Below, in pieces: positions 1-22,312 of a stretch of DNA of 64,000 nt. The stretch is from Minisyncoccia bacterium. Its GTDB lineage: Bacteria > Patescibacteriota > Minisyncoccia > Phycocordibacterales > UBA918. Every line of letters begins with the position of its first letter. Position 1 is the first letter of the stretch. Location of the stretch: NCBI GenBank assembly GCA_046598345.1, contig JBKJIT010000003.1:156549-220548 (forward strand). The letters are read 5' to 3'. The position numbers were made by a program, and so were the translations under genes. Below the pieces are notes generated by a model. The model searched no databases and had not been told where the DNA came from. It saw only the letters and a list, made by a program, of their open reading frames with translations.

Positions 1-1350
1 GGTGCGCAGATTCCAAAGGGAGTAATGATGATGGGTGCGCCCGGTACGGGAAAGACACTCCTCGCACGTGCCGTTGCCGGTGAAGCTGGAGTACCGTTCC
101 TCACGATTTCAGGAAGTGAATTCGTTGAGATGTTTGTGGGGGTGGGTGCGAGTCGTGTACGCGATCTTTTCCAAATGGCGAAGAAAGCTGCGCCCTCCAT
201 TATCTTTGTGGACGAAATTGATGCGGTTGGACGAGTACGAGGTACTGGTGTTGGGGGAGGAAACGATGAACGCGAACAAACGCTTAACCAGATTCTCGTT
301 GAAATGGATGGATTTGAACCCAATGAAAAGGTAGTGGTGATCGCTGCGACGAATCGTCCTGATGTACTTGACCCAGCACTCTTACGCCCCGGTCGTTTTG
401 ACCGTCGTGTAACGATTGATCTTCCTGACCGTGAAGACCGAAAGGCAATTCTTGAAGTCCATGCGCGCAAGAAGCCATTCCAGGAAGATATCAATCTCGA
501 TGTGATCGCCCAACGAACACCAGGTTTCTCAGGAGCCGATCTGTATTCACTCATGAATGAAGGAGCTATTCTTGCAGCTCGTGAAGAGCGTAAAAAGATC
601 GGTCAGTTCGATCTCGTCCGCTCTATTGAAAAGGTGATGCTGGGGCCGGAACGAAAGAGTCACGTACTCAGTCGTCGTGAACGAGAAATTACTGCCTACC
701 ATGAGGCTGGACATGCACTCGTAGCATCAGTCCTTCCGTATGCTGATCCTGTCCAGAAGATTTCAATTATTTCTCGTGGTCGAGCTGCTGGGTATACGCT
801 CAAGCTTCCCGACGAAGATAGGCGCATGCAGTCAAAAAAAGAATTTCTTGATGATATTGCAATGACATTGGGAGGCTACATGACCGAGAAACTCATTTTC
901 GATGATCTTACGACGGGTCCATCAAACGATCTTCAGGTTATCGGTAACCTTGCGCGCGATATGGTTACAAAGTACGGCATGAGCGACAAGCTTGGGCCAA
1001 TTGCACTTGAAGGTACGGGCGGACGAATTTTAGGCGGAGGTATGAGTGAAGATCGTGGATTTTCGCACGAGATTGCAAAGCAGATTGACGACGAAGTTGC
1101 TGCAATAATCGAACAAGGAAAACACCGAGCATTGGAAATTCTCACAAAAAATCGTGGCGCGCTCGACGCGGTTGCGAAGCGTCTACTTGAAGTTGAAACA
1201 CTCGAACGTGAAGAGTACGAGGCAATCCTAAAGACTGAAGGTGTGCAGATAAACGATGCGTATAAAGACATGCGTGAAAAGGCTGAGCGAATGGGGGATC
1301 CAACGAAGACACTGGAACCAGATACGGACGTCCTCGCTGGGAAGCTGTAA
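1..1350 (+). CDS. ftsH: ATP-dependent zinc metalloprotease FtsH, C-terminal part (5' end lies outside window)
   Basis: ORF 25..1350 reads [18 protein letters not shown] (Walker A), FVDEIDAV (Walker B), the AAA second region of homology and the HEAGHA zinc motif of the M41 peptidase; the reading frame stays open back to window position 1. Confidence 0.9.
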
Positions 1351-1370
1351 ATAAATAGACAAAGAAAAAA

Positions 1371-1394
1371 CGGGTCGCGTGAGCGACCCGTTTT
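1371..1394 (+). terminator. rho-independent terminator after ftsH (cgggtcgc-gtga-gcgacccg followed by tttt)
   Basis: GC-rich 8-bp stem hairpin followed by a T run, 20 nt after the ftsH stop codon. Confidence 0.6.
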
Positions 1395-1401
1395 ACTCAT
1401 T

Positions 1402-1857
1402 TCAACTCTTGAGAGTCCATGCCGCTGGGTGTATGAGGAGTGACCAAAATGCGTGTCTGTACACTTGCACAAACTTTTTGAAGTCACCCCGCCGCCAGTT
1501 TTTGCGGTATTCCCAATTGCGCTTCAGCGCTCGGAGAAGCAGAAGTGGAACGGAGCGTGTCTCGAGGGGTTGTTGGTCTCTTCTACTGCAGAAGAGACCA
1601 AACCCTACTACTTTATTCTGGCGATGAGCATCGACGTGAAGTGCTACTGAGAATGGTGAATATTTTTCGCAGTACGATACATCTCGTAGCACAACCATTA
1701 TCTGATGCAATGCTGGTAAGTAGTACGCAGCCGGCCTGAATGAGCGAAAATTCTCTCGCATGAAGGCAGAAAGTAAGGTAGAGTTTGATTCTTCACTTCG
1801 ATCCATTGCAATCTCCTTGTGATGAGGAACATCTAAAAATATATTGTACCACACCAC
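1402..1857 (-). CDS. hypothetical protein (151 aa), doubtful
   Basis: longest ORF in this stretch; no recognisable motif; other-frame ORFs overlap it; the region may instead be non-coding. Confidence 0.2.
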   Translation of the reverse strand: MVWYNIFLDVPHHKEIAMDRSEESNSTLLSAFMRENFRSFRPAAYYLPALHQIMVVLRDVSYCEKYSPFSVALHVDAHRQNKVVGFGLFCSRRDQQPLETRSVPLLLLRALKRNWEYRKNWRRGDFKKFVQVYRHAFWSLLIHPAAWTLKS

Positions 1858-1865
1858 GAACGAAC

Positions 1866-2175
1866 GTATCGCTCCGCTTCGTACATGTCGTGTCAGGTTG
1901 CTAATTCACTACGTTCACTTCGCTTCGGACATTGTCGTCACGAGTTACTAAGTTGAATTTCAGCTTCGCTCAAATTCTACTAAGTACTCGCGACCCCACC
2001 TCACTCACTTTGTTTCCTTATGGTCAACAAAGTATCGTTCCGGTTCGGACATAATCAGTCGTCACTGATTGCTAAGTATAATTATCGCTTTGCTCAAATT
2101 ATTCTAAGCATCATCGACCCCAGCTCGCTGGTTCGCTGCTCAAGGTATAGCAGCTCACATCGCTCCGCTTCGGAC
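1866..2175. repeat. degenerate tandem repeats of about 120 bp (family B), next to tRNA-Ile
   Basis: units begin at 1870, 1921, 2038 and 2161 with CG(C/T)TCCG(C/G)TTCGGACA, which resembles the complement of the adjacent tRNA 3' end GTCCGCCCGCTTGGAC; units share GTCGTCAC, TT(G/A)CTAAGT, GCTCAAATT.T.CTAAG and CGACCCCA(C/G)CTC; homologous stretches recur at 34141-34200 and, inverted, at 35570-35625. Confidence 0.6.
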
Positions 2176-2217
2176 ACATACTAAAAAACCTGACACAAAG
2201 TCAGGTTTTTTAGTATG
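2176..2217. terminator. perfect 19-bp-arm palindrome (acatactaaaaaacctgac / gtcaggttttttagtatgt), probable bidirectional terminator just 3' of the minus-strand tRNA-Ile
   Basis: inverted repeat read directly; T runs on both strands. Confidence 0.6.
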
Positions 2218-2219
2218 TG

Positions 2220-2292
2220 TCCGCCCGCTTGGACTTGAACCAAGGACCACCGAGGTATAAGCTCGGCGCTCTACCAACTGAGCTACAGGCGG
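2220..2292 (-). tRNA. tRNA-Ile with anticodon UAU (decodes AUA)
   Basis: the reverse complement folds as a canonical 73-nt cloverleaf: acceptor CCGCCTG/CGGGCGG with U6-G67, D-arm GCTC-AGTTGGTA-GAGC, anticodon stem CCGAG/CTCGG, loop CTTATAC (U33, A37), T-arm CTTGG-TTCAAGT-CCAAG, discriminator A; CCA is not encoded. Confidence 0.75.
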
Positions 2293-3582
2293 AAGTGAGG
2301 GGGGGCGCGCAAGCTTGCTTGCAGGTTCCCCGAATGCACCGCATGAAAGATTTCTCTTACAGCGGAAGTGAGAAAGATAGTAAAAAAGAAGAGTTCACTA
2401 TTCTTTTTTTATTAGCCTTTCGAACGGGCCGCCTGTATGGAATTTTTCAAAATTCCATACAGGCGGCAAGAAACTCTGTATACGTCGCTGTCATTCAGCC
2501 GGCAAACAAGGGTTTCTTGCTCCAAAACTATAGCGCATAGCCCTTGTCAAAACAATCGACAAAGAGAAAGGGTCGACGTTGAATGCACGCCGACCCTGTA
2601 TTTCATGACGCGCTTGCGTCACTCTGCTGCGCTTACCTCCTTTCCGCGCGAGTAAGTACAGAAAGCATAGGAAACTTCATTGCAAAAGTCAAAGAGTGTT
2701 CATGCTCACAATATAAAATGGAAGGACCGGTACACACATGTGTTCCGGTCCGTGGGTGATTTATGTTTCCAGCGTTGACGGGGCTGCTCCCGAGATTTTG
2801 ACCACCTCCTCTCGCATGAACTACTGTGAGCATAAAGCCACTTCACTCCTAAGTCAAATCCCATTGTGGAAAAATGAAAAGGCCGACACAAATTTGCATT
2901 TGCGTCGGCCCGCCGCTGTTTCCGGCTATTATACCTCTGAGAACTAACCCTTGACCGGAGGCCGCGAGCGACTAGTCGCTTGGCCTCCGGGTACTACTGG
3001 CGTCGAGCTGTGACTTGAGCGAGCTTTGGCGAGAGTAGTCTAAGCTTTCCTGCCAGACCGGGTTTGCACAGCGCAACTCGGTCCTTTTTACAAATCGGTA
3101 CAGATCGTCGGTCCTATTCGTCCGACTCACGCGCGGTCGTTGGTGTATCAAGCGCGTGCCTAACATAAGCTACGGCCAGACCATACAGCCTCCTTTCGGC
3201 TTCGCGAGGGTGAATATAATTGACCCAACGACGTCAGGTCAAGAGCGCTGGGCTGGCGGATCGCAACAGCATGCTGCTATTGCGATCGTGCCCGGGCCGC
3301 CGGCGAATCAATCCAGGTATGCACTCATCGACGTTTTGATCGTCAAGTAGCGTCTCCTTTCTTTAAAATGTGATGAACAATGTCCAAAGCGGTGTTTTGA
3401 CCCGCTCGACTTCAGTATCATAGCACACCCTCAAATATTGTCAAGTATTAAAATCTATTCTGTAATATGAAGGAAGTGTGAAATCCTAATTTTGGCTTGA
3501 AATAATGCTCTTTTAGCTAAAAAAAGACCCCAGCCGTACGGCTGGGGTCAAGGGGGTCTTGCGTGTTTTAGGTTGCGCCGGG

Positions 3583-3942
3583 TTACTTCTTCGGCGCGGC
3601 CGGTGGGACAGGAGCGGGTGCAGGCGCTGGAGCCGGCTTTGCAGCTGCGGGAGCTGCCGGTGCAGGTGCCATCGCTTTGGGTGCATCCTTGGCCGGAGCT
3701 GACTTCTTCGCCTTCTTCGACTTCTTCGCTTTCGCCTTCATGGCCTTCGCTGGCGCTTTTGCGGTCGCGGGTACCGCTGCCGGTGCAGGTGCCACAACTT
3801 TCGCTGGTGCCGCGGCGGCCGAAGGTGCTGCTGCCGGTGCAGGTGCCACAACTTTCGCTGGTGCCGCCGTTTGCGCCATGGCCGAGCTCAACATACTTGC
3901 GGTCGCCAGAGCGGCCGTAAGGTACAACAGGGACTTCTTCAT
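3583..3942 (-). CDS. secreted low-complexity Ala/Pro/Lys-rich protein (signal peptide plus APAKVVAPAPAA repeats and a lysine-rich tail)
   Basis: ATG at 3942 is preceded by AGGAGG; N-terminal MKKSLLYLTAALATASMLSSAMA looks like a signal peptide; the ORF track's longer form starts at an upstream GTG; local GC is clearly higher than the window average. Confidence 0.55.
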   Translation of the reverse strand: MKKSLLYLTAALATASMLSSAMAQTAAPAKVVAPAPAAAPSAAAAPAKVVAPAPAAVPATAKAPAKAMKAKAKKSKKAKKSAPAKDAPKAMAPAPAAPAAAKPAPAPAPAPVPPAAPKK

Positions 3943-4134
3943 CTCAACTACCTCCTTGATTATCACTCACACGGATGTGCGAGTTGATTTCTGATTCTTA
4001 CTGTAAATATTACTTTTGTCAATCTCTTAAAAAAATCTGCATCACGTTCACATTTTTGTAATAAAACCCACTAATAAAAATTCCCTCGCGATGAAACTTG
4101 CGAGGGAATTGATCGACCGTTATGGAAACGATGA

Positions 4135-4554
4135 TCAGGAGATCTGGTACGGACCGGCTTCTGCGGTGAGGCGCTGGGGCTGCCGACTGCCGAGCGGAAC
4201 CGTCATGCCGCCGCCGATTTGCAAACGCCCACTGGTGTAGCTCGTGCTGATGAACTTGGTTTCGTCGACGTTGGTTTGCTTCGTGTGCTGCCAGCGTTCC
4301 GGAACGGTGTTCAGGTAGTCAACATTCGGCGCAATCGCCGCCTTGTTCATCTGCGCGAACGGACCGTCGGGCGCTTTTGGCGTCACGGGGTGACCAGCCT
4401 TGTTGAACGTCAGGTAGATCTGGTCTTGCCCGCTGTTGTATGCCGACATGTGACGATTGAGCTGCTGGTTACAGTCGCCCGCAATGACGGGCGTCGAGAT
4501 TGTTGCCAGTGCTGCTCCAACGACGAGTGCGATGCTGCGGAAACGCGTTCTCAT
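4135..4554 (-). CDS. secreted hypothetical protein (about 139 aa)
   Basis: internal ATG at 4554 is preceded by GGAGTCGGAG; MRTRFRSIALVVGAALATISTPVIAG looks like a signal peptide; the ORF track extends to 4656 without RBS support; GC-rich. Confidence 0.5.
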   Translation of the reverse strand: MRTRFRSIALVVGAALATISTPVIAGDCNQQLNRHMSAYNSGQDQIYLTFNKAGHPVTPKAPDGPFAQMNKAAIAPNVDYLNTVPERWQHTKQTNVDETKFISTSYTSGRLQIGGGMTVPLGSRQPQRLTAEAGPYQIS

Positions 4555-4652
4555 CTCCGACTCCTCTCTGTTGATCAAACGTGGGGTCACGTTCGATATA
4601 TTTGTTGTACACCTCATGGGTTCTTCACACAAGTACTCGAGGTGCAGAGAAC

Positions 4653-6872
4653 TCATTCCATATGGAGATCTTTGCCAAGTGTCAGAATCTTTTCGCGAAG
4701 AAGGGGATACTCCGTAAGTTCGGAGTCAGTCTCTATAAGTAATTGTGCCTCTTTTCTCGCCGCCTCTACCATCTTTATATTTTTAATCGCCTCCATGCCC
4801 AGGTCGGTGAGCCCCCACTGCTTCATGCCATAGAGTTCACCCGAGCCCCGGAGCGCAAGATCGAATTCCGCGAGCTCAAATCCGTTCTTCGCAGTCGTGA
4901 GTGCCTTGAGGCGCTCGAGGGTGCGTCCACTTTTTCCTGTGCTGTCTTTTGAAGTTACCGCAAAGCAGTACGCTTGGTGCTCACTCCGAATCACTCGCCC
5001 GCGAAGCTGGTGGAGTTGCGAGAGGCCAAATCGCTCTGCGCCTTCAATAAGAATATTAGTTGCGTTTGGCACATTGACGCCCACCTCGACAACCGATGTT
5101 GCGACTAGAATGTCGATGTTGTGTTCAAGAAACCGCTTCATCACGTCATCCTTTTCCTTCGGAGTCATTTTACTGTGGAGGATGCCAATGCGTGCAGTCT
5201 TAAACACTTCCTTTTTGAGTCGCAGAGCCTCTGCTTTTACTGACTTGAGCTGTAGCGCATTTTCTTTTAATGGGTCAGGTTCATCAATGCGCGGGCAGAT
5301 TATGTATGCCTGTCTTCCAGCTTTGATCTCGCCCTTCATATGTTCGTACACCTCAGCAATTTTAGTGGGAATCACGACTTTAGTGATGATGGGCTTTCGT
5401 CCCTTGGGCATTTCGTCGAGAAGGGAAATATCGAGGTCCCCATAGACGGTCAAGGCAAGCGTTCGAGGGATAGGAGTCGCCGTCATGGAGAGGAGGTGCG
5501 GCATACGAGTATCTTTCTTCGCGAGCGCACGCCGTTGCGAGGTCCCAAAGCGATGCTGTTCGTCGATAATGACATGCGCCAGGTGTTTGAATGCAACTGA
5601 TTTGTAGATCAGGGCATGTGTGCCGATAAGAATAGGAATTTCTCCATTCTGCACCCACTTAAGGAGCTGTGTCTTTGAGATTGTCGTTGGCTTTGAGGGA
5701 TTCGTCTTTGAAGGGAACTTCATGCAGCCGCTTCCTGTAATGAGTCCAATCTGAATTGGGAGGTGCTTAAAATATTCGATGAATGACTCGAAATGCTGTT
5801 TCGCAAGGATTTCTGTGGGTGCCATGTAGGCAACTTGGAGATTCCCGTATTCGAGAGAACCCACGGACCTCACGGAGGTCCGGCCTCCGTGAGGATTTAA
5901 ACCTTCCGGTGGCCTCGAGGTGGCGACGGCGTACGCGGTTGTGGCAGCGACCGCCGTCTTTCCGCTTCCCACATCTCCTTCGAGAAGTCGTGACATCGGA
6001 TGCTTCCCGGTGAAGTCCTTCAGCATTGCTGAAATGGCCCGCGTCTGTGCGTTCGTGAGCGGGAACGGGAAGCGAGAGGTGAATGCCTTGATGTGCTCTT
6101 CTTCAGTTTTAAATTGGTAGCTCGTCGAGACGGATATTTGGGCGCGCTCCTTTGCTTTTGCGAGCTGGATGCCAAAGACCTCTTCAAAGGCGAACCGCTT
6201 TCGTGCACTCTCTGCATGTTCCGCTTTCTTAGGAGTGTGTATCCAAATGAGCGCTGTACTAAGTACGGGTAGGTTGTATCGTTTGAGCACTTCGCTAGGT
6301 ATTGGGTCAGCGAGCTTCTCAAGGACGCCTGCACTAAAACACTTTTGCACCGTATGAAAAAACCATTTTGAGGTCACGCCCTTGGTTTCTCGGTATACGG
6401 GATAGATAGTCTCGTCTAAGTTTTCGGTGTTTTTGAAAATGGAATCGTGTCGGTCAATGGGAAGGCTTTCTAACTTTTCAATTTCAGGATTCGCGAGGTA
6501 GAGCTTTCCGTCACTCCCTGTCACTTTTCCCGCGAGCTTTACGTACGTGCCATCGGTGAGCATCTTTGCGATGTACGGTTGGTTAAACCACATGATCTTG
6601 ATTCTCGCTGTGCCATCCTCAACCCAGCCTTCTGAAATCGGTACGCGACTCTTCCACGATTTACGAGTGTTGAGCCCGCCAATTTGTCCATAGACCACCG
6701 CATCCTCTCCCTTTGTGAGTGAGCCAACAGATTGAATCGATGAAATATCCTCGTAGCGCTGCGGTACATGGAGGAGTAGATCTTGCACAGTTAAAACGCC
6801 TAAGCGTTTCAGAGCCTTTTGATGGATCTGATCAACTCTGAAATGGGAAGTAAGGAGATCGTGAGGCGACAC
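4653..6872 (-). CDS. recG: ATP-dependent DNA helicase RecG
   Basis: GDVGSGKT Walker A, DEQHRFG motif II, LSMTATPIPRTL, and an N-terminal wedge-like region beginning ...DLL..P.RYED. The track ORF runs to 7127, but that extension has no internal Met and contains the 6923-6945 hairpin; a GTG at 6872 is proposed as the start (uncertain). Confidence 0.85.
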   Translation of the reverse strand: MSPHDLLTSHFRVDQIHQKALKRLGVLTVQDLLLHVPQRYEDISSIQSVGSLTKGEDAVVYGQIGGLNTRKSWKSRVPISEGWVEDGTARIKIMWFNQPYIAKMLTDGTYVKLAGKVTGSDGKLYLANPEIEKLESLPIDRHDSIFKNTENLDETIYPVYRETKGVTSKWFFHTVQKCFSAGVLEKLADPIPSEVLKRYNLPVLSTALIWIHTPKKAEHAESARKRFAFEEVFGIQLAKAKERAQISVSTSYQFKTEEEHIKAFTSRFPFPLTNAQTRAISAMLKDFTGKHPMSRLLEGDVGSGKTAVAATTAYAVATSRPPEGLNPHGGRTSVRSVGSLEYGNLQVAYMAPTEILAKQHFESFIEYFKHLPIQIGLITGSGCMKFPSKTNPSKPTTISKTQLLKWVQNGEIPILIGTHALIYKSVAFKHLAHVIIDEQHRFGTSQRRALAKKDTRMPHLLSMTATPIPRTLALTVYGDLDISLLDEMPKGRKPIITKVVIPTKIAEVYEHMKGEIKAGRQAYIICPRIDEPDPLKENALQLKSVKAEALRLKKEVFKTARIGILHSKMTPKEKDDVMKRFLEHNIDILVATSVVEVGVNVPNATNILIEGAERFGLSQLHQLRGRVIRSEHQAYCFAVTSKDSTGKSGRTLERLKALTTAKNGFELAEFDLALRGSGELYGMKQWGLTDLGMEAIKNIKMVEAARKEAQLLIETDSELTEYPLLREKILTLGKDLHME

Positions 6873-13632: not shown

Positions 13633-14724
13633 ATGGCATTTGACCTGTCCAAAGTAACCTCGTTTTTTGAGAAAAAAATAACAACATCCAGTAAAAAGAT
13701 GGTGGTGGGCATTGATATTGGCTCCTCTGCAATAAAAATAGTACAGCTCTACGACAATAAGGGCACACCTACGCTTGAAACCTACGGTGAATTGCAGCTT
13801 GGTCCGTATGAAAATTCAGATATTGGACGCACGACACATCTCCATGAGGAGAAACTGAGGGAAGCGTTTGTAGACATTCTTCGTGAGTCATCAGTTACCG
13901 CAAAAAAAGTAGCACTTGCGATTTCCTACAGTGGAAGTTTCTCCTCGATTATTCCTGTACCGACGAGTGATATTGCGAGTATCGCTGCTATGATTCCTGT
14001 GGAAGCGCGCAAGTATGTGCCCGTACCACTTGCTGAAGTAACGCTCGATTGGTTCCCGGTATCAAGTCGATCGGACGGTACTGGGACGAATGTGCTCCTC
14101 GTTGCTATTCACAATGGCGTACTCAAGAAGTACGAAACCATGGTTCGCACGTTGAATTTGGAATCTACACTTACTGAAATTGAAATGTTTAGTACGATTC
14201 GTTCAGCAGTGAGTCAAAAAGATACCTCAGTTGCAGTTATCGATATCGGTGCCGGTTCAACAAAGGTGTATATCGCAGAACAGGGAGTGGTGGCAAAGAC
14301 GCATAGTCTCCTCATGAGCGGTGTGCTCTGTACGAAGGCAATTGCGGACGCAGCAAGAATTCCCTTTAAAGAGGCTGAAGAACTCAAACGACGTTATGGA
14401 CTCAGTGAAATAACTGAATATCCGCTCGCAGGGAAGGCACTCCTTGATGTTGTGGAGAGAGGGTTTAGAGAAATTGCGAAAGTGATTGAGCGTTTTGAAG
14501 AGAGTGGGGGAACGAAGGTGGAGAAAATTGTACTCGCGGGGAGTGGAGCTCTGCTTCAAGGGATTCCCTCATTCGGAGAACAACTTTTCTCGCGCACAGT
14601 TTCGCTCGCTGATCCCTTTTCGAAGGTGGCGTATCCTGCCTTTCTCGAAGACACACTCAAAGAAGCGGGTCCATCATTTGCAGTGTCGGTTGGAGTGGCG
14701 ATTCGCGCACTCGGGAGTTTGTAG
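13633..14724 (+). CDS. pilM: type IV pilus assembly protein PilM (actin-like ATPase)
   Basis: VVGIDIGSSAIKIVQL N-terminal motif, about 360 aa, first gene of a pilMNO block. Confidence 0.85.
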   Translation: MAFDLSKVTSFFEKKITTSSKKMVVGIDIGSSAIKIVQLYDNKGTPTLETYGELQLGPYENSDIGRTTHLHEEKLREAFVDILRESSVTAKKVALAISYSGSFSSIIPVPTSDIASIAAMIPVEARKYVPVPLAEVTLDWFPVSSRSDGTGTNVLLVAIHNGVLKKYETMVRTLNLESTLTEIEMFSTIRSAVSQKDTSVAVIDIGAGSTKVYIAEQGVVAKTHSLLMSGVLCTKAIADAARIPFKEAEELKRRYGLSEITEYPLAGKALLDVVERGFREIAKVIERFEESGGTKVEKIVLAGSGALLQGIPSFGEQLFSRTVSLADPFSKVAYPAFLEDTLKEAGPSFAVSVGVAIRALGSL

Positions 14725-14835
14725 ACCGAGCGAACCATTTTTAAATGGGCAGAACGCAGCAAGTGTATGGTTCTTTTCTCTCCAATGTCCACAGCACCGT
14801 GACCGTATTGTTTTCTCTCCTAACGTATACTGTAA

Positions 14836-15531
14836 ATGATGGCAGAAATTCCACGTTCTTCTTTCATACCAAAACAACCAGGTTCGGTTGTTCCTGCCGC
14901 GATGCAGCGTCGACGGCGTTTTCATGTTTTTGGTTTTATTGCGACCGTCATTCTTGTCGGCTCCTTACTTTTTGCTGGAGGAGCATATTTTTACAAAGGG
15001 GTTTCTGAACAGCGGCTCATAAAAGCGCAGGAAAACTTAAAAGCTGAAAAGGATAAGTTTGATATTGCAAAGTTAAATGAGATCCGTGACTTCAATCGTC
15101 AGATTCTTGCAGTACGATTTCTGCTTGATCAGCATATTGCCCCGTCGAAGATCTTTGACGTGCTCGAACTCAATACGATGGAGCGGCTTCAATTTACCTC
15201 ACTTCACCTCACGTACGATCCTTCGCGCGAGATATTGATGGATGTGCAGGGGAGTACTGAAGAATTTAAGACGGTCGCACTTCAGGGTCTCAGTTTTGGA
15301 AAGGTGCCCCTTCTTAGAGATTCGATAATCTCTGAGCTCGGCACTTCAAATACAGCCGAATCGGAAACAGGCGAAGATGACCAACAGGTTACGTTTAACG
15401 TGAAGAGTGTGCTCAGCATAGATGGTCTGGCGTATACAGCTGCTCCACGTACTGAAGCACTCCCATCTGGGGACAGGGCGACTACTTCTCTGGAGGGCGC
15501 GGCGTCACCGAGTAATTCGGGTCAACAATAA
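14836..15531 (+). CDS. pilN: PilN-like pilus assembly protein
   Basis: single N-terminal TM segment then a coiled-coil region; assigned from position after pilM. Confidence 0.6.
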   Translation: MMAEIPRSSFIPKQPGSVVPAAMQRRRRFHVFGFIATVILVGSLLFAGGAYFYKGVSEQRLIKAQENLKAEKDKFDIAKLNEIRDFNRQILAVRFLLDQHIAPSKIFDVLELNTMERLQFTSLHLTYDPSREILMDVQGSTEEFKTVALQGLSFGKVPLLRDSIISELGTSNTAESETGEDDQQVTFNVKSVLSIDGLAYTAAPRTEALPSGDRATTSLEGAASPSNSGQQ

Positions 15532-15536
15532 CGAAT

Positions 15537-16106
15537 ATGTTTAGAACTATTACACCAATTTTTTCCATAATTCTCGCCATAGCGATCTATTTTCTTTTTA
15601 CAAGTGAAATTTTTGTAGGTATTAAGGCTACCCAGGTAGAAGCAGAGGGGCTTGAGGTGGCAGTGTTGGAAGTGAAAAAGTTCAATGACGAACTTGAGCG
15701 CCTCTTGGCCATCAAGCGTTCCATGAGTTCTGAGCGAGACCGCATTGAGGCGTTTGTGAGTACTGAAACAGACGAGGTGCGCATGCTCGTTGATCTTGAG
15801 GCTATGGCTAAGAGACATAATATGCTCCTTGGAAATATTAGCGTTACAAAAGCAACGGCCGAAACAGCGGCACCTACTGACGTGACGGCGATGTCGAGTG
15901 GGATTGGTCTCTCAGATTTTATGAGCACGGACATCTCATTTGGTCTCATTGGTACCTATGAAGACTTCCGCGCAATTCTTGCAGAACTTGAGAGAAGCCT
16001 CGTCCTTATGGAAATCATTGATATCTCTCATACGGCGAACGAGGGAGACTTACAGCAGTTTGATCTAACCGTTCGCGCGTATGCATTAAAATCAGTAGCC
16101 CAATAA
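15537..16106 (+). CDS. pilO: PilO-like pilus assembly protein
   Basis: N-terminal TM segment, coiled coil; assigned from position. Confidence 0.55.
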   Translation: MFRTITPIFSIILAIAIYFLFTSEIFVGIKATQVEAEGLEVAVLEVKKFNDELERLLAIKRSMSSERDRIEAFVSTETDEVRMLVDLEAMAKRHNMLLGNISVTKATAETAAPTDVTAMSSGIGLSDFMSTDISFGLIGTYEDFRAILAELERSLVLMEIIDISHTANEGDLQQFDLTVRAYALKSVAQ

Positions 16107-16109
16107 CGT

Positions 16110-16409
16110 ATGTCTAATCTTCTTAAAAATTTACTGTTTGCGCTCGGACTCTCCGTTTTGTTGTGGCTCGGGTACGTACTTTTTGTAAAGGATACTGATG
16201 AATTTGCAGATGGTGAAGCTGGAGTTGTCGTATCTCCAGAGGCCCAACTCGAAGCTCAAGAGTTCGTTGCTCGGCTCAATGAGCTCAAAGATATGGACAT
16301 TGATTCTGGTGTGACGAGCGAGGAGAAGTTTAAATCGCTCGAGGATTTTAGGGTGACGATTGAAGATGAACCAAAGGGGAGACGGAATCCATTTGCTCCG
16401 GTGGAATAG
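16110..16409 (+). CDS. small membrane-anchored protein (PilP-like by position)
   Basis: N-terminal TM segment LLFALGLSVLLWLGYVLFV; sits between pilO and pilB. Confidence 0.4.
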   Translation: MSNLLKNLLFALGLSVLLWLGYVLFVKDTDEFADGEAGVVVSPEAQLEAQEFVARLNELKDMDIDSGVTSEEKFKSLEDFRVTIEDEPKGRRNPFAPVE

Positions 16410-16430
16410 AGTACAAGCTCACATAAAGGT

Positions 16431-18290
16431 ATGAATCTTCTTGCACTTCTAGAAGAAAAGAATGTTATTGATGCTGAAAAATCAGCTGGAGCTCTTCAAT
16501 ATGCGAAGGAGCACGGGGTATCGTACGAACGGGCGCTCCTTGAAGATGGTGTTGATGACGAGGTTATCAGAAAGACCATTGGGGAATATTTTGAGCTTCC
16601 CTCGCGAGCAATCGATGAAAACGAGAAGATCGACCCTACGGTACTCAAGTATCTTTCCCTTGAGTCATCACGACATTACGGTATTGTGCCACTCGCTATC
16701 GAAGATGGGGTGCTCGAGGTAGGTATTATTGATCCTGAAAATCTCTCGTTTCGAGATGCGCTTAATTTTATAACGACTAAGGAGCAACTTCCGTACAAAC
16801 TTATTTATATACTCGAACAGGATTTTGAACATGCGCTCAAGTCCTATGAAAACCTCACGGGGGATGTGGATGCGGCACTCGGTGACCTTGAATCCGAACT
16901 TGATGAGCAAGATGTTGTAGAGCGAGCTGTGCACGAGGGCCTTAGTAAGCCGGGTATGGAGCACATCAAGGAAGATGCTCCTGTTACTAAAATTGTGGCG
17001 ACGATTCTTCGGTACGCGGTGGATGGAGGGGCATCTGATATCCACATCGAGCCAACCATGAAAAAGATTGTGGTGCGCTTTCGTGTCGACGGTATTCTCG
17101 CGCACAGTCTTGAGCTTCCACTGAAAGCACATTTAGCGGTTGTCGCACGCATTAAAATTTTGGCGTCACTTCGTCTTGATGAAAAGCGTAAGCCACAGGA
17201 CGGTCGTTTTTCAGCTTCGATTGATGGGAGACAGATAGACTTCCGTGTCTCTATTCTGCCGACGAGCCATGGAGAGAAGGTGGTTATGCGTATTCTCGAT
17301 ACTGAAACAGGTGTGCGCACCCTTGAGGACACAGGTGTATCGAAACACAATATCGACCTCATTCGTAAGGCGATTAAACAACCGTACGGCATCATTCTCA
17401 TTTCTGGACCAACGGGCTCGGGTAAATCAACGACGCTCTATGCGATGCTCTCTGAGGTAGACCGGGTAGGGAAGAACGTTATTTCGCTCGAGGATCCGGT
17501 GGAATATAGCATTGATGGGGTGAGTCAATCGCAGATGCGTCCTGAAATTGGGTATACATTCGCGAACGGTCTCCGCACCGCGCTTCGACAAGATCCGGAC
17601 GTGATCATGGTGGGAGAAATTCGTGATAAGGAAACGGCCCAACTGGCGATTCAGGCCGCACTGACGGGACACCTCGTGCTTTCAACGATTCACACCAACA
17701 ATGCAGCGGGAGTTATCCCACGCCTCATTGATATGGGTGTGGATCCATATCTCATCGCTCCTACGCTTCAGCTCGCGCTCGCACAACGCCTCGTGCGACG
17801 TATTTGTCCTAACTCAGGGAAGAAAATTCCAGTTCAAGGAAGTATGAAAATGATGATTGAGCACGAGTTTAACGAACTCTCCGGTGAGTTCCGAAAGTTG
17901 ATTCCTAACGCTGAGTACGTTCTCAATGCCGAACCAACCGCTGAGTGTGCGAGTGGCACGAAGGGACGTGTTGCGGTTATGGAGGCGATTGAAGTGAACG
18001 ACGATATCCAAAAACTTATCCTCAACGGCACGAACGAGGATGAGCTTACCAAGGCAGCACGAAAGAATGGATTTATGACGATGAAGGAAGATGCCATTAT
18101 AAAGGCGCTCGAACACTCGATTCCCTTTGAAGAAATTAATACCCTTGGTGGTGCACTTCTCATTTCGGACGAAGCTGAAAAGGAGGCGGAGGCACCCGTC
18201 TTGCCGACCGAAGGAGAGAAGCTTGAAGCTGAGGGTATTGAAGTCGCACCTTCGGAACCTGTCGATAACCAAGAGATTCCAAAGTTCTAG
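16431..18290 (+). CDS. pilB: type IV pilus assembly ATPase PilB (GspE family)
   Basis: GPTGSGKSTTLYAML Walker A, Asp box, His box, GSPII_E N-terminal domain; acidic C-terminal extension. Confidence 0.9.
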   Translation: MNLLALLEEKNVIDAEKSAGALQYAKEHGVSYERALLEDGVDDEVIRKTIGEYFELPSRAIDENEKIDPTVLKYLSLESSRHYGIVPLAIEDGVLEVGIIDPENLSFRDALNFITTKEQLPYKLIYILEQDFEHALKSYENLTGDVDAALGDLESELDEQDVVERAVHEGLSKPGMEHIKEDAPVTKIVATILRYAVDGGASDIHIEPTMKKIVVRFRVDGILAHSLELPLKAHLAVVARIKILASLRLDEKRKPQDGRFSASIDGRQIDFRVSILPTSHGEKVVMRILDTETGVRTLEDTGVSKHNIDLIRKAIKQPYGIILISGPTGSGKSTTLYAMLSEVDRVGKNVISLEDPVEYSIDGVSQSQMRPEIGYTFANGLRTALRQDPDVIMVGEIRDKETAQLAIQAALTGHLVLSTIHTNNAAGVIPRLIDMGVDPYLIAPTLQLALAQRLVRRICPNSGKKIPVQGSMKMMIEHEFNELSGEFRKLIPNAEYVLNAEPTAECASGTKGRVAVMEAIEVNDDIQKLILNGTNEDELTKAARKNGFMTMKEDAIIKALEHSIPFEEINTLGGALLISDEAEKEAEAPVLPTEGEKLEAEGIEVAPSEPVDNQEIPKF

Positions 18291-18308
18291 TAAGTATAAT
18301 AGCTATAT

Positions 18309-18674
18309 ATGAAAATTCTTCTCGTGGATGACGATGCTTTTTTACGCGATATGTATGCGACCAAATTTGGTGAAGAGGGCCATTCGGTATCGGTTGCAGA
18401 AAGTGGAGAACAGGCACTTGAAATGTTGAAGACAGAATCCTTTGAGACAGTACTTATGGATATGATTATGCCAGGAATGACGGGGGTTGAGCTTCTCAAG
18501 GCAATTCAAGGTGCATCGCTCTCGCCAATGCCGATCTGTATTGTCCTTTCCAATCAGGGAGAACAGGAGGATATGAAAGCAGCACTGGCAGCTGGCGCAA
18601 AAGGGTATATTATCAAAGCTGAGATGATCCCGAGTGAGGTCGTCGCTAAAGTTAAAAGTATAGTTGAGGGATAA
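18309..18674 (+). CDS. CheY-like response-regulator receiver domain protein
   Basis: MKILLVDDDAFLRDM...DMIMPGMTG with the conserved Asp positions; stand-alone REC between pilB and pilT. Confidence 0.8.
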   Translation: MKILLVDDDAFLRDMYATKFGEEGHSVSVAESGEQALEMLKTESFETVLMDMIMPGMTGVELLKAIQGASLSPMPICIVLSNQGEQEDMKAALAAGAKGYIIKAEMIPSEVVAKVKSIVEG

Positions 18675-18676
18675 TT

Positions 18677-19747
18677 ATGGCAACGGTTGACTACAAACGA
18701 GAGCTGGAAGATCTCATCGATATTGTTATTACTGAGAATGGCTCCGACATACACCTTTCTGTTGGCTCGCACCCAATCATTCGAGTTGCGGGTGTACTCA
18801 TTCCACTGACGAAGAAGCCAGTTCTTAATACCACCGATGTGCTTGGGTTCCTTCGGTCCCTCATCACAAAAGAATCAGAGGATAAATTTATAGCTTCGCA
18901 TGAGGTGGATTTCTCATTTGCTGCACAAAAGGGTGTACGTTTTCGTGGGAATGCTTTTTATCAGAAAGGAACAATCGCAATCGCACTTCGACACATTCCG
19001 AATAATGTCCGCACATTTCAGGAGCTCAACCTTCCTCCGATTCTTGAAAGTTTTACCCAGCGCCCCCAGGGATTCTTTCTCTGTGTGGGTCCCGTAGGTC
19101 AGGGTAAATCAACCACGCTCGCAGCCATGGTGGATTTGATTAACCAGACACGCGCCGAACACATTGTGACCATTGAAGATCCAATCGAGTATATTTTCGA
19201 ACCCAAAAAATCGCTCATTGATCAGCGCGAAATAGGGCTCGATACTAAAGATTTCTATACAGGGCTACACTCAGCGTTCCGTCAGGACGTCGACGTGATC
19301 ATGGTGGGAGAAATGCGTGGACATGAGACGATCAGCACCGCTGTTACTGCTGCGGAGACGGGTCATCTTGTTTTTTCAACGCTCCATACGAACAACGCAG
19401 CGCAAACAATCGATCGTATTATCGATACCTTCCCGGCAGAGCAGCAGGATCAGATCCGTACGCAGCTCTCAGGCTCACTCGCGGGCATTTTCTCACAGCG
19501 CCTCATCCCACGTATTTCAGGAGGACTCATCCCTACATACGAACTCCTCATCAATAACTCTGCAGTTTCAAACCTCATTCGTGAACGTCGTACCCATGAA
19601 ATTCAAACCGTCATCGAAACCGGACTTGAGCACGGTATGATTGATATGAACCGCTCTCTTGTGGAGCTCGTACAAAAAGGAGAAGTCACCGTTGAAAACG
19701 CATTCGCGTATTCCACAAATCCAAAAGGACTCGAACGACTTATGTAA
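18677..19747 (+). CDS. pilT: twitching-motility ATPase PilT
   Basis: GPVGQGKSTTLAAMVDLIN Walker A and PilT-type motifs, about 356 aa. Confidence 0.9.
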   Translation: MATVDYKRELEDLIDIVITENGSDIHLSVGSHPIIRVAGVLIPLTKKPVLNTTDVLGFLRSLITKESEDKFIASHEVDFSFAAQKGVRFRGNAFYQKGTIAIALRHIPNNVRTFQELNLPPILESFTQRPQGFFLCVGPVGQGKSTTLAAMVDLINQTRAEHIVTIEDPIEYIFEPKKSLIDQREIGLDTKDFYTGLHSAFRQDVDVIMVGEMRGHETISTAVTAAETGHLVFSTLHTNNAAQTIDRIIDTFPAEQQDQIRTQLSGSLAGIFSQRLIPRISGGLIPTYELLINNSAVSNLIRERRTHEIQTVIETGLEHGMIDMNRSLVELVQKGEVTVENAFAYSTNPKGLERLM

Positions 19748-19755
19748 TCTCATAT

Positions 19756-20964
19756 ATGCTCTTTTCTTATAAAGCAATTGATCAAAACAGCACACCGCGC
19801 GAAGGCACGGTGGAGGCAAAGAGCACTGAGTCTGCGATTCAAACCGTGCAGGATAGAGGGTATACCATTATTTCAGTTGAGCCGCTGAATGAGAAAACCT
19901 CCGCGCTTAACATAGAAATCAAGTGGTTTGAGCGCGTATCAATGAAGGAGATTGTAATCCTTTCAAGACAGGTAGCTACGCTCTTTGAGGCACAGGTATC
20001 CGCGCTCCGCGTGTTTCGCCTTCTTGCAGCGGAAAGTGAGAACCCAAAGATGCAGAGCATTCTCACCGCCATATCAGATGATTTGCAGGGCGGAAGTTCA
20101 ATTTCCCGTGCACTCGCGCATCATCCGGATGTATTTTCGCCGTTTTATGTCAGCATGGTTCGCTCAGGTGAAGAATCAGGAACCCTTGAAAAGGTATTTA
20201 TGTACCTCGCGGATTATTTGGACCGCACGTACCAAGTCGTTACGAAAGCGCGAAATGCACTGATCTACCCGGCCTTTGTGATAGCCATTTTTATCGCGGT
20301 TATGCTCCTTATGCTCACGATGGTTATTCCACGCATCAGTGAAATTCTCATTAGTTCTGGAGGAGAAATTCCGATTTATACAAAGATTGTAATGAGTATC
20401 TCAAGCTTCTTCGCAAACTACATTGGTCTCATTCTTGTGTTTGTGGCGCTCGGGGGTTTTGTGTTCTGGCAATTTATGCGCACTGAAGTAGGGAAGCGTG
20501 CCGTTGACGAATTTAAGCTACGGGTTCCAATTATTGGAGATCTCTACGAAAAGCTTTTCCTCACTCGCATCTGCGACAATCTTTCTACAATGCTTGGAAG
20601 CGGCATCTCAATGGTCCAGGCGCTTGAAATCACGGCTGAGGTTGTCGACAACGCGGTCTATCGCGAAATTATCGAAGATACGCTCGTTGATGTGAAGGGT
20701 GGGAAATCGTTTGCGGACTCTATTTCTGAGTATCCCGAGATTCCTGGGGTACTTGCCCAAATGAGTAAGGTTGGTGAAGAAACGGGTAAACTGGGGGATA
20801 TTTTGGATACGCTTTCAACATTTTATAGACGCGAGGTAAATAATTCGGTTGATACGCTCATTTCACTTATTGAGCCTGCGATGATTGTGCTTCTCGGCCT
20901 TGGGGTGGGGACTTTGTTGGCTTCTGTACTAATACCTATCTACAACATCACCGGAAGCGTTTAG
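19756..20964 (+). CDS. pilC: type IV pilus inner-membrane platform protein PilC (GspF family)
   Basis: two repeats of the GspF domain; about 400 aa with three TM regions. Confidence 0.85.
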   Translation: MLFSYKAIDQNSTPREGTVEAKSTESAIQTVQDRGYTIISVEPLNEKTSALNIEIKWFERVSMKEIVILSRQVATLFEAQVSALRVFRLLAAESENPKMQSILTAISDDLQGGSSISRALAHHPDVFSPFYVSMVRSGEESGTLEKVFMYLADYLDRTYQVVTKARNALIYPAFVIAIFIAVMLLMLTMVIPRISEILISSGGEIPIYTKIVMSISSFFANYIGLILVFVALGGFVFWQFMRTEVGKRAVDEFKLRVPIIGDLYEKLFLTRICDNLSTMLGSGISMVQALEITAEVVDNAVYREIIEDTLVDVKGGKSFADSISEYPEIPGVLAQMSKVGEETGKLGDILDTLSTFYRREVNNSVDTLISLIEPAMIVLLGLGVGTLLASVLIPIYNITGSV

Positions 20965-21185
20965 CGGATTCTCGCACACTTCTTTGTTGCTTCAGTCATA
21001 GTATGTCTCGTCGTATATTAAATACGCCTCAACAGACTATTTCCTTTGCGCCTCGAATTGTACTGAGAATCCGCTAAACGCTTTTGTTATATGTGCTGTC
21101 CACAGCAGTAAGCCAAATTGTAACGAAAGCTCGTATAATGGATGTAACCACACTACGTGGAGCAATAATTATTTATTTATAAATT

Positions 21186-21680: not shown

Positions 21681-21696
21681 AAAATACAATTTTGAC

Positions 21697-22277: not shown

Positions 22278-22312
22278 AACGATCATAGAATGGAGACTTA
22301 CTGGTACGTCCC

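Follow-up and report, generated by a model that had tools for sequence, protein, structure and literature searches.

The repeats downstream of the tRNA-Ile(UAU) gene are tandem copies of a small non-coding element that had not been described before and that is widespread among the Paceibacteria, within the candidate phyla radiation. The element is 120-260 bp in size with no ORF inside it, and resembles a new kind of mobile element that targets the ends of genes. Copies were recognised in the window, that is, the whole stretch of 64,000 nucleotides that was analysed, and an HMM made from them located the unit in other genomes. Covariance modelling covered 46 copies from the window and 80 genome loci, and 115 copies from 100 metagenome loci, with E-values reaching 1e-21; in total, about 160 copies are present among relatives, in independent assemblies. 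On balance, the copies probably represent a protein-free insertion element residing at the extreme 3' end of highly expressed, conserved Paceibacteria genes. Insertion of a small element had been raised in an earlier note on this DNA, and that idea is the best-supported reading.

A scan of the window against Rfam 15 at gathering thresholds returned tRNAs and one group I intron only, with nothing for the element, and permissive Rfam scans of positions 1700-2400 and 34000-35800 yielded hairpin noise well under gathering scores. Known RNA families and ribozymes were rejected for want of any Rfam match. No published description of the element was found in the literature searched.

The array at tRNA-Ile(UAU) and further copies in the window

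The tRNA-Ile(UAU) gene ends in ...GCGGGCGGACA and does not encode the CCA. The array beside it (1865-2176) consists of two full units of 124 nt, one internally deleted unit and one truncated start (Table 1). Repeat searches placed an 18-nt motif, 78-94% identical between copies, at 1868-1885, 1914-1931, 2034-2051 and 2159-2176, and a 72-nt block, 74% identical at a spacing of 124 nt, at 1934-2005 and 2058-2129. Alignment of 1921-2051 with 2041-2176 by blastn gave 67% identity over 138 nt (E 2e-11), and the blocks GTCGTCAC, TTGCTAAGT, GCTCAAATT..CTAAG and CGACCCCACCTC were all found in the array. Tandem Repeats Finder missed the array because the identity of the repeats is under its threshold. 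Repeat search, blastn, ARAGORN and Rfam together confirm the location of the motif copies, blocks and tRNA gene given in the earlier note. Of its four units, only units C and B are full, unit A being internally deleted and the fourth unit truncated. The proposed resemblance of the motif to the complement of the tRNA end is real and limited to the last six to seven bases (CGGACA on the plus strand), which give the tRNA 3' end in reverse complement; the remainder is the conserved 5' strand of a helix, P1, described below.

Table 1. Element copies and associated features, with their positions in the window.
Feature	Position	Strand	Evidence
Host gene tRNA-Ile(UAU)	2219-2292	-	ARAGORN; Rfam tRNA, 70 bits
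Perfect 24-bp inverted repeat with 5-nt loop, directly 3' of tRNA-Ile(UAU)	2171-2223	-	Repeat search
Guide ('anti') of unit C, UGUCCGA	2170-2176	-	Read from sequence
Core of unit C	2061-2175	-	Covariance model, 90.1 bits, E 6e-20
Junction after unit C, GACUGAUUA	2052-2060	-	Read from sequence
Unit B, guide UGUCCGA and core (1937-2050), ending ...CUCGUGAC	1937-2051	-	Covariance model, 87.0 bits
Junction GACAA, then internally deleted unit A (1887-1931)	1887-1936	-	Repeat search
Truncated start of fourth unit, A-UGUACGA-AGCGGAGCGAU, then unrelated sequence	1865-1886	-	Repeat search
Extended -10 box TGGTACAAT (1843-1851), AAGGAG and ATG of orphan ORF 1402-1806; outside the element	1804-1851	-	Read from sequence
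Copy after tRNA-fMet (30998-31069)	30827-30997	-	Covariance model, 25.8 bits, E 0.0013
Copy after tRNA-Met(CAU) (31877-31951)	31952-32137	+	Core found by eye, under covariance-model threshold
Orphan complete unit E, no tRNA body upstream	34114-34300	-	Covariance model, 71 bits
Unit F, downstream of tRNA-Asp	35427-35624	+	Covariance model, 49 bits
Copy after interrupted tRNA-Thr(GGU)	36885-37049	+	Covariance model, 24.4 bits, E 0.003

The functional orientation of the element is that of the host tRNA (minus at tRNA-Ile(UAU)), the strand opposite to the one originally read. The inner stem of the inverted repeat directly 3' of the gene, CCUGAC/GUCAGG followed by U6, resembles a bidirectional intrinsic terminator; a terminator scan did not flag this hairpin. 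Its outer stem pairs the last tRNA bases (CGGAC, 2219-2223) with the element guide, and the same arrangement was found in about 60 relatives. Within the guide of unit C, UGUCCG is the reverse complement of the tRNA 3' end CGGACA, and in the junction after this unit the last tRNA bases appear again as GAC, a short second gene-end copy ('DR2') that is only 3-4 nt long at this gene. Units B and C are 67% identical. In unit A, the guide and 5' strand of P1 (UGUCCGAAGCGAAGUGAA) are fused to the 3' part of a second helix, P3 (...AUUAGCAACCUGACACGAC). The array probably arose by serial insertion, or by unequal recombination between the short repeats, with the distal units decaying afterwards.

The promoter and start signals read from the sequence at 1804-1851 mark the distal edge of the array. 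The ORF that they precede had no Pfam match and no homologues among the fetched loci. Regulatory sites upstream of this ORF were rejected as an explanation of the repeats, the ORF being an orphan and the element following tRNAs in unrelated contexts. A coding repeat or pseudogene was likewise rejected: neither strand has an ORF running across the array, and a period of 124 nt is not divisible by three. Degenerate tRNA genes were rejected too, none being detected in the units by ARAGORN or Rfam. The search for other strains and for polymorphism of the array yielded one public sample only, the contigs of which stop short of the array.

At least five of the eight tRNA genes in the window bear a copy of the element. 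The two distant homologous pieces of the earlier note are real and correspond to the cores of units E and F. The latter had been tied to tRNA-Thr(CGU); it belongs to the tRNA-Asp locus, and tRNA-Thr(CGU) merely converges with it by coincidence. The list was also incomplete, since three more copies follow tRNA-fMet, tRNA-Met(CAU) and an interrupted tRNA-Thr(GGU). In unit E, a copy of the last 22 nt of tRNA-Asp (34279-34300) stands ahead of a hairpin and of a second hairpin, hpA, ACACAAACUGCUUUGUGU (34212-34229); the core (34114-34201) is preceded by a degenerate guide, and the extent of the unit is exactly that predicted for a complete one. Unit F has the same composition, with the second tRNA-Asp 3'-end copy at 35427-35448, a hairpin, hpA at 35501-35518, a degenerate guide and the core at 35529-35624. 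Behind tRNA-fMet, a terminator is followed by a guide complementary to the T arm, AGGAAUCGAA (30941-30950); the core (30852-30944) is degenerate, and after it come an exact 24-nt repeat of the tRNA end (30827-30850) and a second terminator. In the tRNA-Met(CAU) copy, the terminator (31952-31995) is followed by a 19-nt guide without a mismatch, GUCGACGGGAAGAGUUGAA (32002-32020); its core is divergent, and a partial tRNA-end repeat, AACUCUUCCCGUC, runs from 32122. At tRNA-Thr(GGU), a terminator is followed by two guides that flank hpA (36926-36945), the first against the acceptor strand and the second (36948-36958) against the T arm; the core (36954-37029) and the tRNA-end repeat CAAUCCCGUGAGGUGGCUCA (37030-37049) come next.

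Architecture, fold and dependence on the host gene

Read in the sense of the host gene, a complete unit is made up of the gene 3' end, a terminator-like hairpin in which a CUGC loop is frequent, the guide, the core and a second gene-end copy. The guide is the reverse complement of the gene end, 5-27 nt in length and sometimes split by a small hairpin. The core, of 85-115 nt, contains two irregular hairpins and has GUGAC at its end, directly after which the second gene-end copy, of 3-70 nt, begins. Most copies outside the window are single, with tandem arrays present elsewhere at loci L289 (three units), L291, L005 and L215.

The core folds as helix P1 (GSC.../...GSC, with a GNA/GA internal loop) around a hairpin, hp2, followed by a GGGG linker and the long hairpin P3 (GUCG.../...GUGAC). 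The guide and gene-end copy are able to pair, and this predicted helix would close the core as a three-way junction, with junction strands AG/GG and GGGG and the boundary between element and host at its centre. Analysis with RNAalifold of 20 copies that were chosen independently of the search pattern revealed compensatory changes in 12 of 16 pairs; column 8/55 of P1, for example, is CG in 10 copies, GC in 8 and UA in 2. Paired cells make up 98.7% in 106 distinct copies; shuffling lowers this figure to 78.7% and sliding to 28-55%. Double changes number 313 against 87. The 115-copy alignment was gathered with a pattern fixing AGCGAUG and GCGAGSCGGGGUCG and fitted to the model, so that its conservation and pairing figures are inflated. 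A conserved G·U is present in 97 of 102 lettered cells and another pair alternates between GC and GU (48/38); both would be mismatches on the opposite strand, and the fold is therefore assigned to the gene-sense strand. Single-sequence folding was weakly better than for shuffled sequences (z -2.0, against -1.8 for the opposite strand). The fold is strongly supported by covariation. Rather than the tRNA 3'-end mimics or passive scars originally proposed, the units are complete copies of an element with a fold conserved by compensatory changes. Two further structural candidates were rejected: a kissing interaction between the CUGC loop and the hp2 loop AGCAG, which by eye is present in some copies and fails in L026, L065 and L032, and a kink-turn in P1, where the GNA/GA loop is a misfit to the canonical 3-nt bulge and tandem G·A given the covarying pairs.

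The element resides mainly behind tRNA genes, which cover 17 or more amino-acid specificities, and behind tmRNA genes, and occasionally behind protein genes, namely rpsI and a topA-like gene. For 81 of 109 metagenome copies, a tRNA or tmRNA gene is present on the same strand no more than 400 nt upstream, and the gap between gene end and core is mostly 40-90 nt and commonest near 50. The suggestion of an undescribed tRNA-associated repeat is upheld by this consistent relationship to tRNA genes outside the window, and the refuting outcome named in the earlier note did not occur, except that the association is broader than with tRNA alone.

Both the guide and the gene-end repeat depend on the host gene. 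Each guide matches its own host, as in the copies at tRNA-Lys (CGCACCA/UGGUGCG), tRNA-Ala (UCCACCA/UGGUGGA), tRNA-Trp (CCCGC/GCGGG) and tRNA-Ile (CGGAC/GUCCG); the complementary stretch in relatives reaches 19-27 nt and varies with the host tRNA. The median complementary run is 7 nt between a guide and its own host and 4 nt for mismatched pairs. The junction bases after GUGAC also vary with the host tRNA in relatives, being CAC, GAC or CGC. In 18 of 26 scorable copies, the second gene-end copy begins 1-3 nt (mode 2) within the guide-target helix, and pairing of at least 5 bp between the guide and this copy occurs in 43% of copies, compared with 16% of mismatched pairs. Gene-end repeats extend to 20-24 nt at tRNA-fMet, tmRNA and tRNA-Ser, to 62 nt in L064 and to about 70 nt at the topA-like gene. 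The first copy of the 3' end is intact in element-bearing genes.

An obligatory intron of the T loop was considered and rejected, as most cases with no tRNA proved to be contig ends, tmRNA genes missed by ARAGORN or protein-gene hosts. The interrupted tRNA-Ser copies in L027 and L292 are pseudogene-like and lie beside or near an intact tRNA-Ser gene.

Occupancy, probable mobility and alternative explanations

The element occurs in many copies per genome and its occupancy is patchy. At loci L282, L223, L240 and L244 nearly all tRNA genes have a copy, and L292 holds five copies within 12 kb. Only 11 of 70 tRNA-Ile(UAU) genes are trailed by a copy; for tmRNA genes the figure is at least 11 of 44, and the empty tmRNA sites have a terminator only. 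Recent copying is evident at L292, where two copies with identical cores and guide regions are found at different tRNA-Ser genes of one contig, each followed by the local tRNA end. At tRNA-Ser(CGA) of this locus both gene-end copies are local, yet the guide matches tRNA-Ser(UGA). Of two candidate sub-models, target duplication or gene conversion fits this pattern better than a gene end borne by the element would. At L293, the 3' end of the topA-like gene occurs three times with elements between, and the differences are mainly at third codon positions. Synonymous and non-synonymous codon changes number 13/4, 8/7 and 11/5, with the frame and stop kept in all three copies; in the rpsI cases the gene-end differences are synonymous only.

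No recombinase, transposase or reverse transcriptase was linked to any copy examined. Clustering of the ORFs within 1.5 kb of copies revealed nothing recurrent other than synteny artefacts (SmpB, FtsH, RecG and ORFs overlapping the element), and the ten window ORFs inspected were housekeeping genes, with no integrase among them.

Under the insertion reading, the element would insert just within the end of a gene that is kept intact, because the gene-end copy and the terminator would end up upstream of the element, and it would move both inside and between genomes. The guide-target helix probably sets the point of insertion. The boundaries of putative insertions were placed from the repeats, as no near-identical pair of empty and filled genomes was available. 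It is quite possible that insertion is guide-directed and perhaps RNA-based. The element has what nucleic-acid-guided insertion would be expected to show: a host-specific guide, a fixed register of 2 nt from guide to junction, and a conserved fold across that junction. A more ambitious version is conceivable, if rather doubtful, in which the element is a protein-free, guide-bearing mobile RNA or DNA with an active three-way junction, acting as a ribozyme or as a guide RNA or folded ssDNA for an unlinked host enzyme. The internal guide would pair with the 3' terminus of a selected gene and set cleavage and joining 2 nt inside the helix so formed, a change of guide would retarget the element to any gene end, and tandem units would be processed in the manner of the multimers of small circular replicons. 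Transcription of the core is only putative, given the terminator-like hairpin upstream of it.

Copies from the same genome are often as diverged as copies from different genomes, as illustrated by units B and C. A recent burst would look different, and the pattern would also be consistent with a long-standing function at these sites. Such a function is proposed in an alternative that appears unlikely, in which the element is a cis-acting RNA module of the host. As a structured trailer at the 3' end, it would aid termination, the processing of 3' ends or the protection of tRNA, tmRNA and certain mRNAs, and local recombination would occasionally duplicate it. A trailer of this type would account for the fixed placement 40-90 nt past the gene end in the orientation of the gene, the pairing with the gene 3' end, the preservation of the fold by compensatory change over deep divergence, the near-complete occupancy at four loci and the old, diverged copies within genomes. 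Trailers of tRNAs are known to act as small RNAs in E. coli (3'ETS-leuZ), which also counts in its favour. However, 59 of 70 orthologous tRNA-Ile(UAU) genes and many tmRNA genes are without the element, the core lies downstream of a terminator-like hairpin, and a processing signal leaves the second gene-end copy after the core unexplained. Nor does it explain the synonymously diverging serial 3' ends of protein genes or the gene-less orphan unit E.

Slightly less probable again is derivation from integrase-mobilised islands or prophages that target the 3' ends of tRNA, tmRNA and protein genes, the element being a remnant or miniature and its core a dsDNA arm with protein-binding sites, moved in trans if at all. 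One conserved core is present at more than 25 target sequences with an integrase in no flank, the compensatory changes and the G·U pairs confined to one strand indicate a folded single strand and not duplex binding sites, and a target-complementary guide would have no role. These observations are set against a gene end that is duplicated, its first copy being followed by a new terminator, which is the classical signature of target-restoring site-specific integration, and against gene-end duplicates whose synonymous divergence implies a foreign origin. The insertion points in the T loop or acceptor end also agree with this origin, these being the sublocations within tRNA genes that Williams (2002) reportedly described for integrases, and tmRNA is a classic integration target. 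No copy was present among the matches listed in two pattern scans of IMG/VR viral contigs; the matches listed were chance ones in GC-rich coding DNA, and a phage attachment region was rejected on this weak negative evidence.

Chance similarity or an assembly artefact is scarcely credible and in effect already refuted, given about 160 copies in independent assemblies with E down to 1e-21, a consistent architecture and strong covariation, even though the window assembly breaks near repeats in the sole public sample containing the window and L003 has a suspicious perfect inverted tmRNA-end copy at a contig end.

If the element is indeed a protein-free insertion element, genomes of about 1 Mb in the candidate phyla radiation, thought to be poor in mobile DNA, hold many copies of a tiny non-coding element that would have found a safe way to insert, at the extreme end of genes that are essential and highly expressed and that it leaves intact. 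It would also explain assembly breaks at the tRNA loci of such genomes, as well as partial tRNA 'pseudogenes' and confusing 3' flanks of tRNA and tmRNA genes, and the synonymously diverged gene-end copies would be a record of horizontal transfer between lineages. Should the guide-bearing mobile RNA or DNA reading prove true, bacteria whose genomes are very small would harbour a new class of insertion element that is both non-coding and programmable. The covariance model can be used to annotate copies.

Comparison with known systems

Two known systems were readily distinguished. The period of 124 nt differs from the 34-36 nt of type III toxin-antitoxin (ToxI-like) repeats, and ORF 1402-1806 next to the array, preceded by a promoter of its own, matched nothing in Pfam. 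The sole Rfam group I intron match in the window is at 35052-35261, inside tRNA-Asp.

Islands and prophages of tyrosine integrases also insert into the 3' portion of their targets, which are tRNA, tmRNA or conserved protein genes; within tRNAs the sites are the T loop or acceptor end. They duplicate the gene end so that the gene remains intact and bring their own terminator. The direct repeat of the target 3' end that marks integrative elements is present here, whereas an integrase gene inside the element is not; at 120-260 bp, the element is without cargo, and one core family occupies more than 25 targets. It also differs in its RNA-like fold, which is maintained by covarying changes, and in having an internal segment that complements the target.

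MITEs and other cis-mobilisable elements are similarly small, non-coding and multicopy, presumably relying on an enzyme encoded elsewhere. In contrast to MITEs, the element has neither family-wide terminal inverted repeats, its inverted flanks (guide and gene-end copy) being host-specific, nor a target duplication of fixed length (3 to 70 nt). Its copies are old and diverged, conserve structure and not sequence, and are strictly in the orientation of the host gene.

Integron attC sites and class C group II introns share with the element folded single-strand sites of conserved structure and variable sequence, tandem arrays and a preference for sites beside terminator hairpins. The core is, however, a three-helix fold where attC is a single imperfect hairpin, no integrase was seen in the flanks, and the element is far too small for a class C group II intron; group II introns are reported to be absent from Patescibacteria (Nakagawa et al., PMC13011429).

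The R2 retrotransposon with its HDV-like ribozyme resembles the element in being inserted in a highly expressed structural RNA gene and in including junction host sequence in an RNA fold. R2 is co-transcribed with its host gene and encodes a reverse transcriptase and endonuclease, and its ribozyme is a double pseudoknot, unlike the fold of the element. Likeness to the type I hammerhead is of topology only: the strand order is guide, hairpin, hairpin and a substrate strand pairing back to the guide, and the hammerhead scissile bond sits where the junction of element and host sits here. The element is without the CUGANGA and GAAA core, its final C is base-paired and the Rfam ribozyme models were not matched.

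The bridge RNA of IS110/IS1111 and the TnpB omega RNA of IS200/IS605 are likewise structured non-coding RNAs at the end of an element that pair with target or flanking DNA. They differ in that the DEDD recombinase, TnpA and TnpB are absent in or near any copy, as judged by clustering of the flanking ORFs, and the fold is unrelated to that of IS605, with the Rfam IS605-orfB and related motif models not matched. In omega RNA the flanking target sequence comes directly after the scaffold, as the second gene-end copy comes after the core here; unlike in the IS110 and omega RNA systems, the guide of the element is upstream of the scaffold, with a copy of the target downstream.

Tandem units at tRNA-Ile(UAU) and other copies in the window

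The tandem repeats that the earlier note had described beside tRNA-Ile(UAU) are real: a repeat search of the array found the 18-nt motif four times and a 72-nt block twice at a spacing of 124 nt, and the two full units, C and B, aligned with 67% identity over 138 nt (E 2e-11). Tandem Repeats Finder did not report the array because the units are too diverged. Read in the tRNA sense, the locus runs from the tRNA through a perfect 24-bp inverted repeat, the outer arm of which takes in the last bases of the tRNA, to UGUCCGA, unit C, GAC...UGUCCGA, unit B, GACAA, a deleted unit and a truncated unit start, followed by promoter-like TGGTACAAT, AAGGAG and the ATG of an orphan ORF. Serial or tandem copies of one element, decaying at the distal end, are the best-supported reading of this array. 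An extended -10 box and a strong Shine-Dalgarno sequence precede the adjoining orphan ORF, which matched nothing in Pfam, lacks homologues in all fetched loci and is not in the protein collection.

A profile made from the units recovered the two distant copies named previously, and no others. Each (in units E and F) is preceded by an exact 22-nt copy of the tRNA-Asp 3' end, with two hairpins and a degenerate UG(C/U)GA... motif between this and the core, the two-hairpin part of the unit that ends in GUGAC. Units therefore follow tRNA 3' ends and are oriented as the tRNA itself. The tie of the unit F copy to tRNA-Thr(CGU) had to be abandoned, that gene being merely a convergent neighbour. Further copies were located 3' of tRNA-fMet, tRNA-Met(CAU) and the interrupted tRNA-Thr(GGU) using a covariance model and inspection. 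At least five of the eight tRNA genes in the window are occupied; tRNA-Ser(GCU), tRNA-Gln and tRNA-Thr(CGU) are without an element.

The intron of tRNA-Asp(GUC) belongs to a type that Nakagawa et al. 2026 (PMC13011429) described. A LAGLIDADG endonuclease is encoded by a free-standing ORF ending 2 nt short of the tRNA gene, an arrangement suggesting that it homes together with the intron, which has no ORF of its own; for introns of this kind, limited mobility is inferred in the literature. The insert of tRNA-Thr(GGU) shows group I-like motifs and had no Rfam match, even at E 0.01. Homologues of the ORF overlapping the 5' end of that gene stand immediately 5' of tRNA genes at 14 or more other loci.

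Features located in the window
Feature	Position	Strand	Remarks
Orphan ORF	1402-1806	-	134 aa
tRNA-Ile(UAU)	2219-2292	-	
Region upstream of tRNA-Ile	2293-3580		~1.3 kb without convincing ORF; many perfect GC-rich hairpins, e.g. around 2425-2470, 2880-2910, 2955-2990
GC-rich region	3000-6000		GC content 0.50-0.55, above remainder of window
Type IV pilus/competence-type cluster	13633-23896		PilM, T2SSE ATPase, T2SSF, prepilin peptidase
Distant copy in unit E	34114-34201	-	
LAGLIDADG endonuclease ORF	34353-35009		
tRNA-Asp(GUC)	35012-35309		Interrupted by group I intron (Rfam)
Group I intron	35048-35269		222 nt; anticodon position 35/36
Second small module	35343-35426		
Distant copy in unit F	35529-35624	+	
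ORF overlapping tRNA-Thr(GGU)	36004-36615		LAGLIDADG-like GLFWGEG motif; no Pfam match
tRNA-Thr(GGU)	36606-36884		Second interrupted tRNA
Insert in tRNA-Thr(GGU)	36642-36845		~204 nt, after U36
Tandem duplications	47419-47477, 56126-56190		30-33 nt, AUGUUGCCACAAGGUAACCCUGUGGAGGAC-like; just 5' of ORF series
Series of ~190-aa ORFs	47519-49726, 55340-57351		

Distribution among relatives

The window comes from a bacterium of the candidate phyla radiation, within the Paceibacteria/Kaiserbacteria group, and its FtsH fragment shows 70-86% identity to genomes of that group. The element was present in a set of 80 FtsH-linked loci from species-representative genomes, directly 3' of tRNA-Ile(UAU) in 11 of 70 cases, and also after the tmRNA 3' end, approximately 2 kb upstream of FtsH, and after tRNA-Ser genes. 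A pattern scan of metagenomes gave at least 120 loci, with 90 confirmed among the matches listed, bearing 109 copies. The relationship to tRNA genes raised in the earlier note was borne out, as 81 of these 109 listed copies lay no more than 400 nt downstream of a tRNA or tmRNA gene on the same strand. Gene end and core were mostly separated by 40-90 nt, most commonly near 50. Metagenome hosts included tRNA-Arg, Val, Ile (GAU and UAU), Lys, Ala, Ser, Glu, Trp, Phe, Pro, Met, Asp, Asn, Leu and Gly as well as tmRNA, to which the window adds tRNA-fMet and tRNA-Thr; in several contigs two or three adjacent tRNA genes each had their own element. Protein-gene hosts were rpsI and a topA-like gene, where the guide, the stretch complementary to the host gene's 3' end, is the complement of the last codons.

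The unusual isoacceptor tRNA-Ile(UAU) is found close to ftsH, within a few kb, in 70 of the 80 fetched relatives (L002-L081; window 1-2292), many of which also have tmRNA and smpB at approximately 2 kb on the upstream side of ftsH. Many relatives (L011, L015, L023, L034, L042, L045, L053, L057, L073) have part of the tRNA-Ile 3' half a second time, only 14-60 nt past tRNA-Ile(UAU); this copy begins in the anticodon loop or T arm and sometimes differs in acceptor sequence, and no recognisable element separates it from the gene. The second small module occupies the same niche in the window and in L027, L047, L079, L055, L236 and L223. A guide directed at the tRNA end is followed there by a variable long hairpin, then by GUACUGAAC(A/C)UGUAA(G/U) and directly by a tRNA-end copy; at tmRNA genes (L055, L079) the module has the guide and small-hairpin front of the main element but a different core. 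A repeat-flanked small GIY-YIG-type nuclease ORF follows tmRNA in the element's place in L025, L059, L064 and L077. In L003 (1-110), at least 30 nt of the tmRNA 3' end recur as a perfect inverted copy that lies beyond the tmRNA terminator and reaches the contig end; it is a genuine palindrome or else a fold-back artefact of the assembly.

Anatomy and predicted fold

In the long form, a terminator hairpin comes after a gene whose 3' end is complete. Two host-complementary stretches follow, the first being the reverse complement of the acceptor 3' strand and the second that of the T arm, with a small hairpin, often GCAAACUGCUUUGC, between them. AG and the core to GUGAC come next, after which the gene is repeated from its T loop through to its end, and then there is a second terminator. 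In the short form, e.g. at tRNA-Ile(UAU), a single hairpin, commonly GACACAAA...CCUGCGG...UUUGUGC, comes after the gene. Next is a complement of the gene's last bases, 5-7 nt long (CCA included if encoded), then AG or GG and the core to GUGAC, and finally a repeat of the last 3-12 nt of the gene. Guides showed a median complementary run of 7 nt to their own host, as opposed to 4 nt in mismatched pairs. The second gene-end copy started 1-3 nt (mode 2) within the guide-target helix in 18 of 26 scorable copies. Pairing of this copy with the guide can close the core; it reached 5 bp or more in 43% of copies, compared with 16% of mismatched pairs.

RNAalifold analysis of 20 copies, gathered without a sequence pattern, predicted a helix P1 (GSC/GSC and GC/GC flanking a GNA/GA internal loop) enclosing a variable hairpin, then a GGGG linker leading to a long hairpin P3 (GUCGCGAG.../...UUCGUGAC), with compensatory changes in 12 of 16 pairs. 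Among 106 distinct metagenome copies, 98.7% of cells paired, compared with 78.7% when shuffled and 28-55% with slid partners; double changes numbered 313 against 87, and one P1 pair was CG in 49, GC in 45 and AU in 6. This alignment is model-fitted and pattern-selected, so that independent support comes mainly from the 20-copy result. Single-sequence folding was uninformative (z -2.0 and -1.8). The covariation strongly supports a core folded as a single strand. Two features place the fold on the gene-sense strand, the minus strand at tRNA-Ile(UAU): a G·U that hardly varies and a pair alternating GC/GU, both of which would be C·A on the opposite strand. No Rfam family matched the element and no description was found in a full-text literature search.

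Evidence for mobility, and comparison with known systems

A non-coding, structured insertion element targeting gene 3' ends is the best-supported interpretation. Occupancy of orthologous sites is patchy. No pair of close strains with one site filled and the other empty was found, the window's own genome being present in one sample only. Unit E is a complete unit without a gene body, and further tandem arrays occur in L289 (three units), L291, L005 and L215. Five copies lie within 12 kb in L292, where two at different tRNA-Ser genes have identical cores and guide regions, each followed by the local tRNA end; this fits local target duplication or gene conversion. In L293, the last ~24 codons of the topA-like gene are present three times with elements between. 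These copies differ mostly at third positions (14/22, 11/22 and 15/23 of the differences), with synonymous exceeding non-synonymous codon changes and frame and stop kept in all three; the rpsI repeats show synonymous differences only. Such gene ends diverged while functional, which implies that at least some elements brought the gene end in from another lineage, and L293 fits a gene end borne by the element. Both processes may occur. No recombinase was linked to the copies among the ORFs flanking those examined or the ten window ORFs. On a more radical reading, suggested by the fixed register and junction-centred fold, fold and guide themselves would direct insertion. The chance of a categorically new mechanism is substantial. 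DNA uptake through the pilus/competence-type genes of the window could aid the spread of such elements.

The idea of a structured, target-pairing RNA is shared with the IS110 and IS605 systems, and the use of host sequence in the junction fold with R2, but neither fold nor protein is common to any of these and the present element. It works most like integrative elements that restore their target gene; however, an integrase defines these, and because the element has none it falls outside them. We rate it as a small non-autonomous insertion element.
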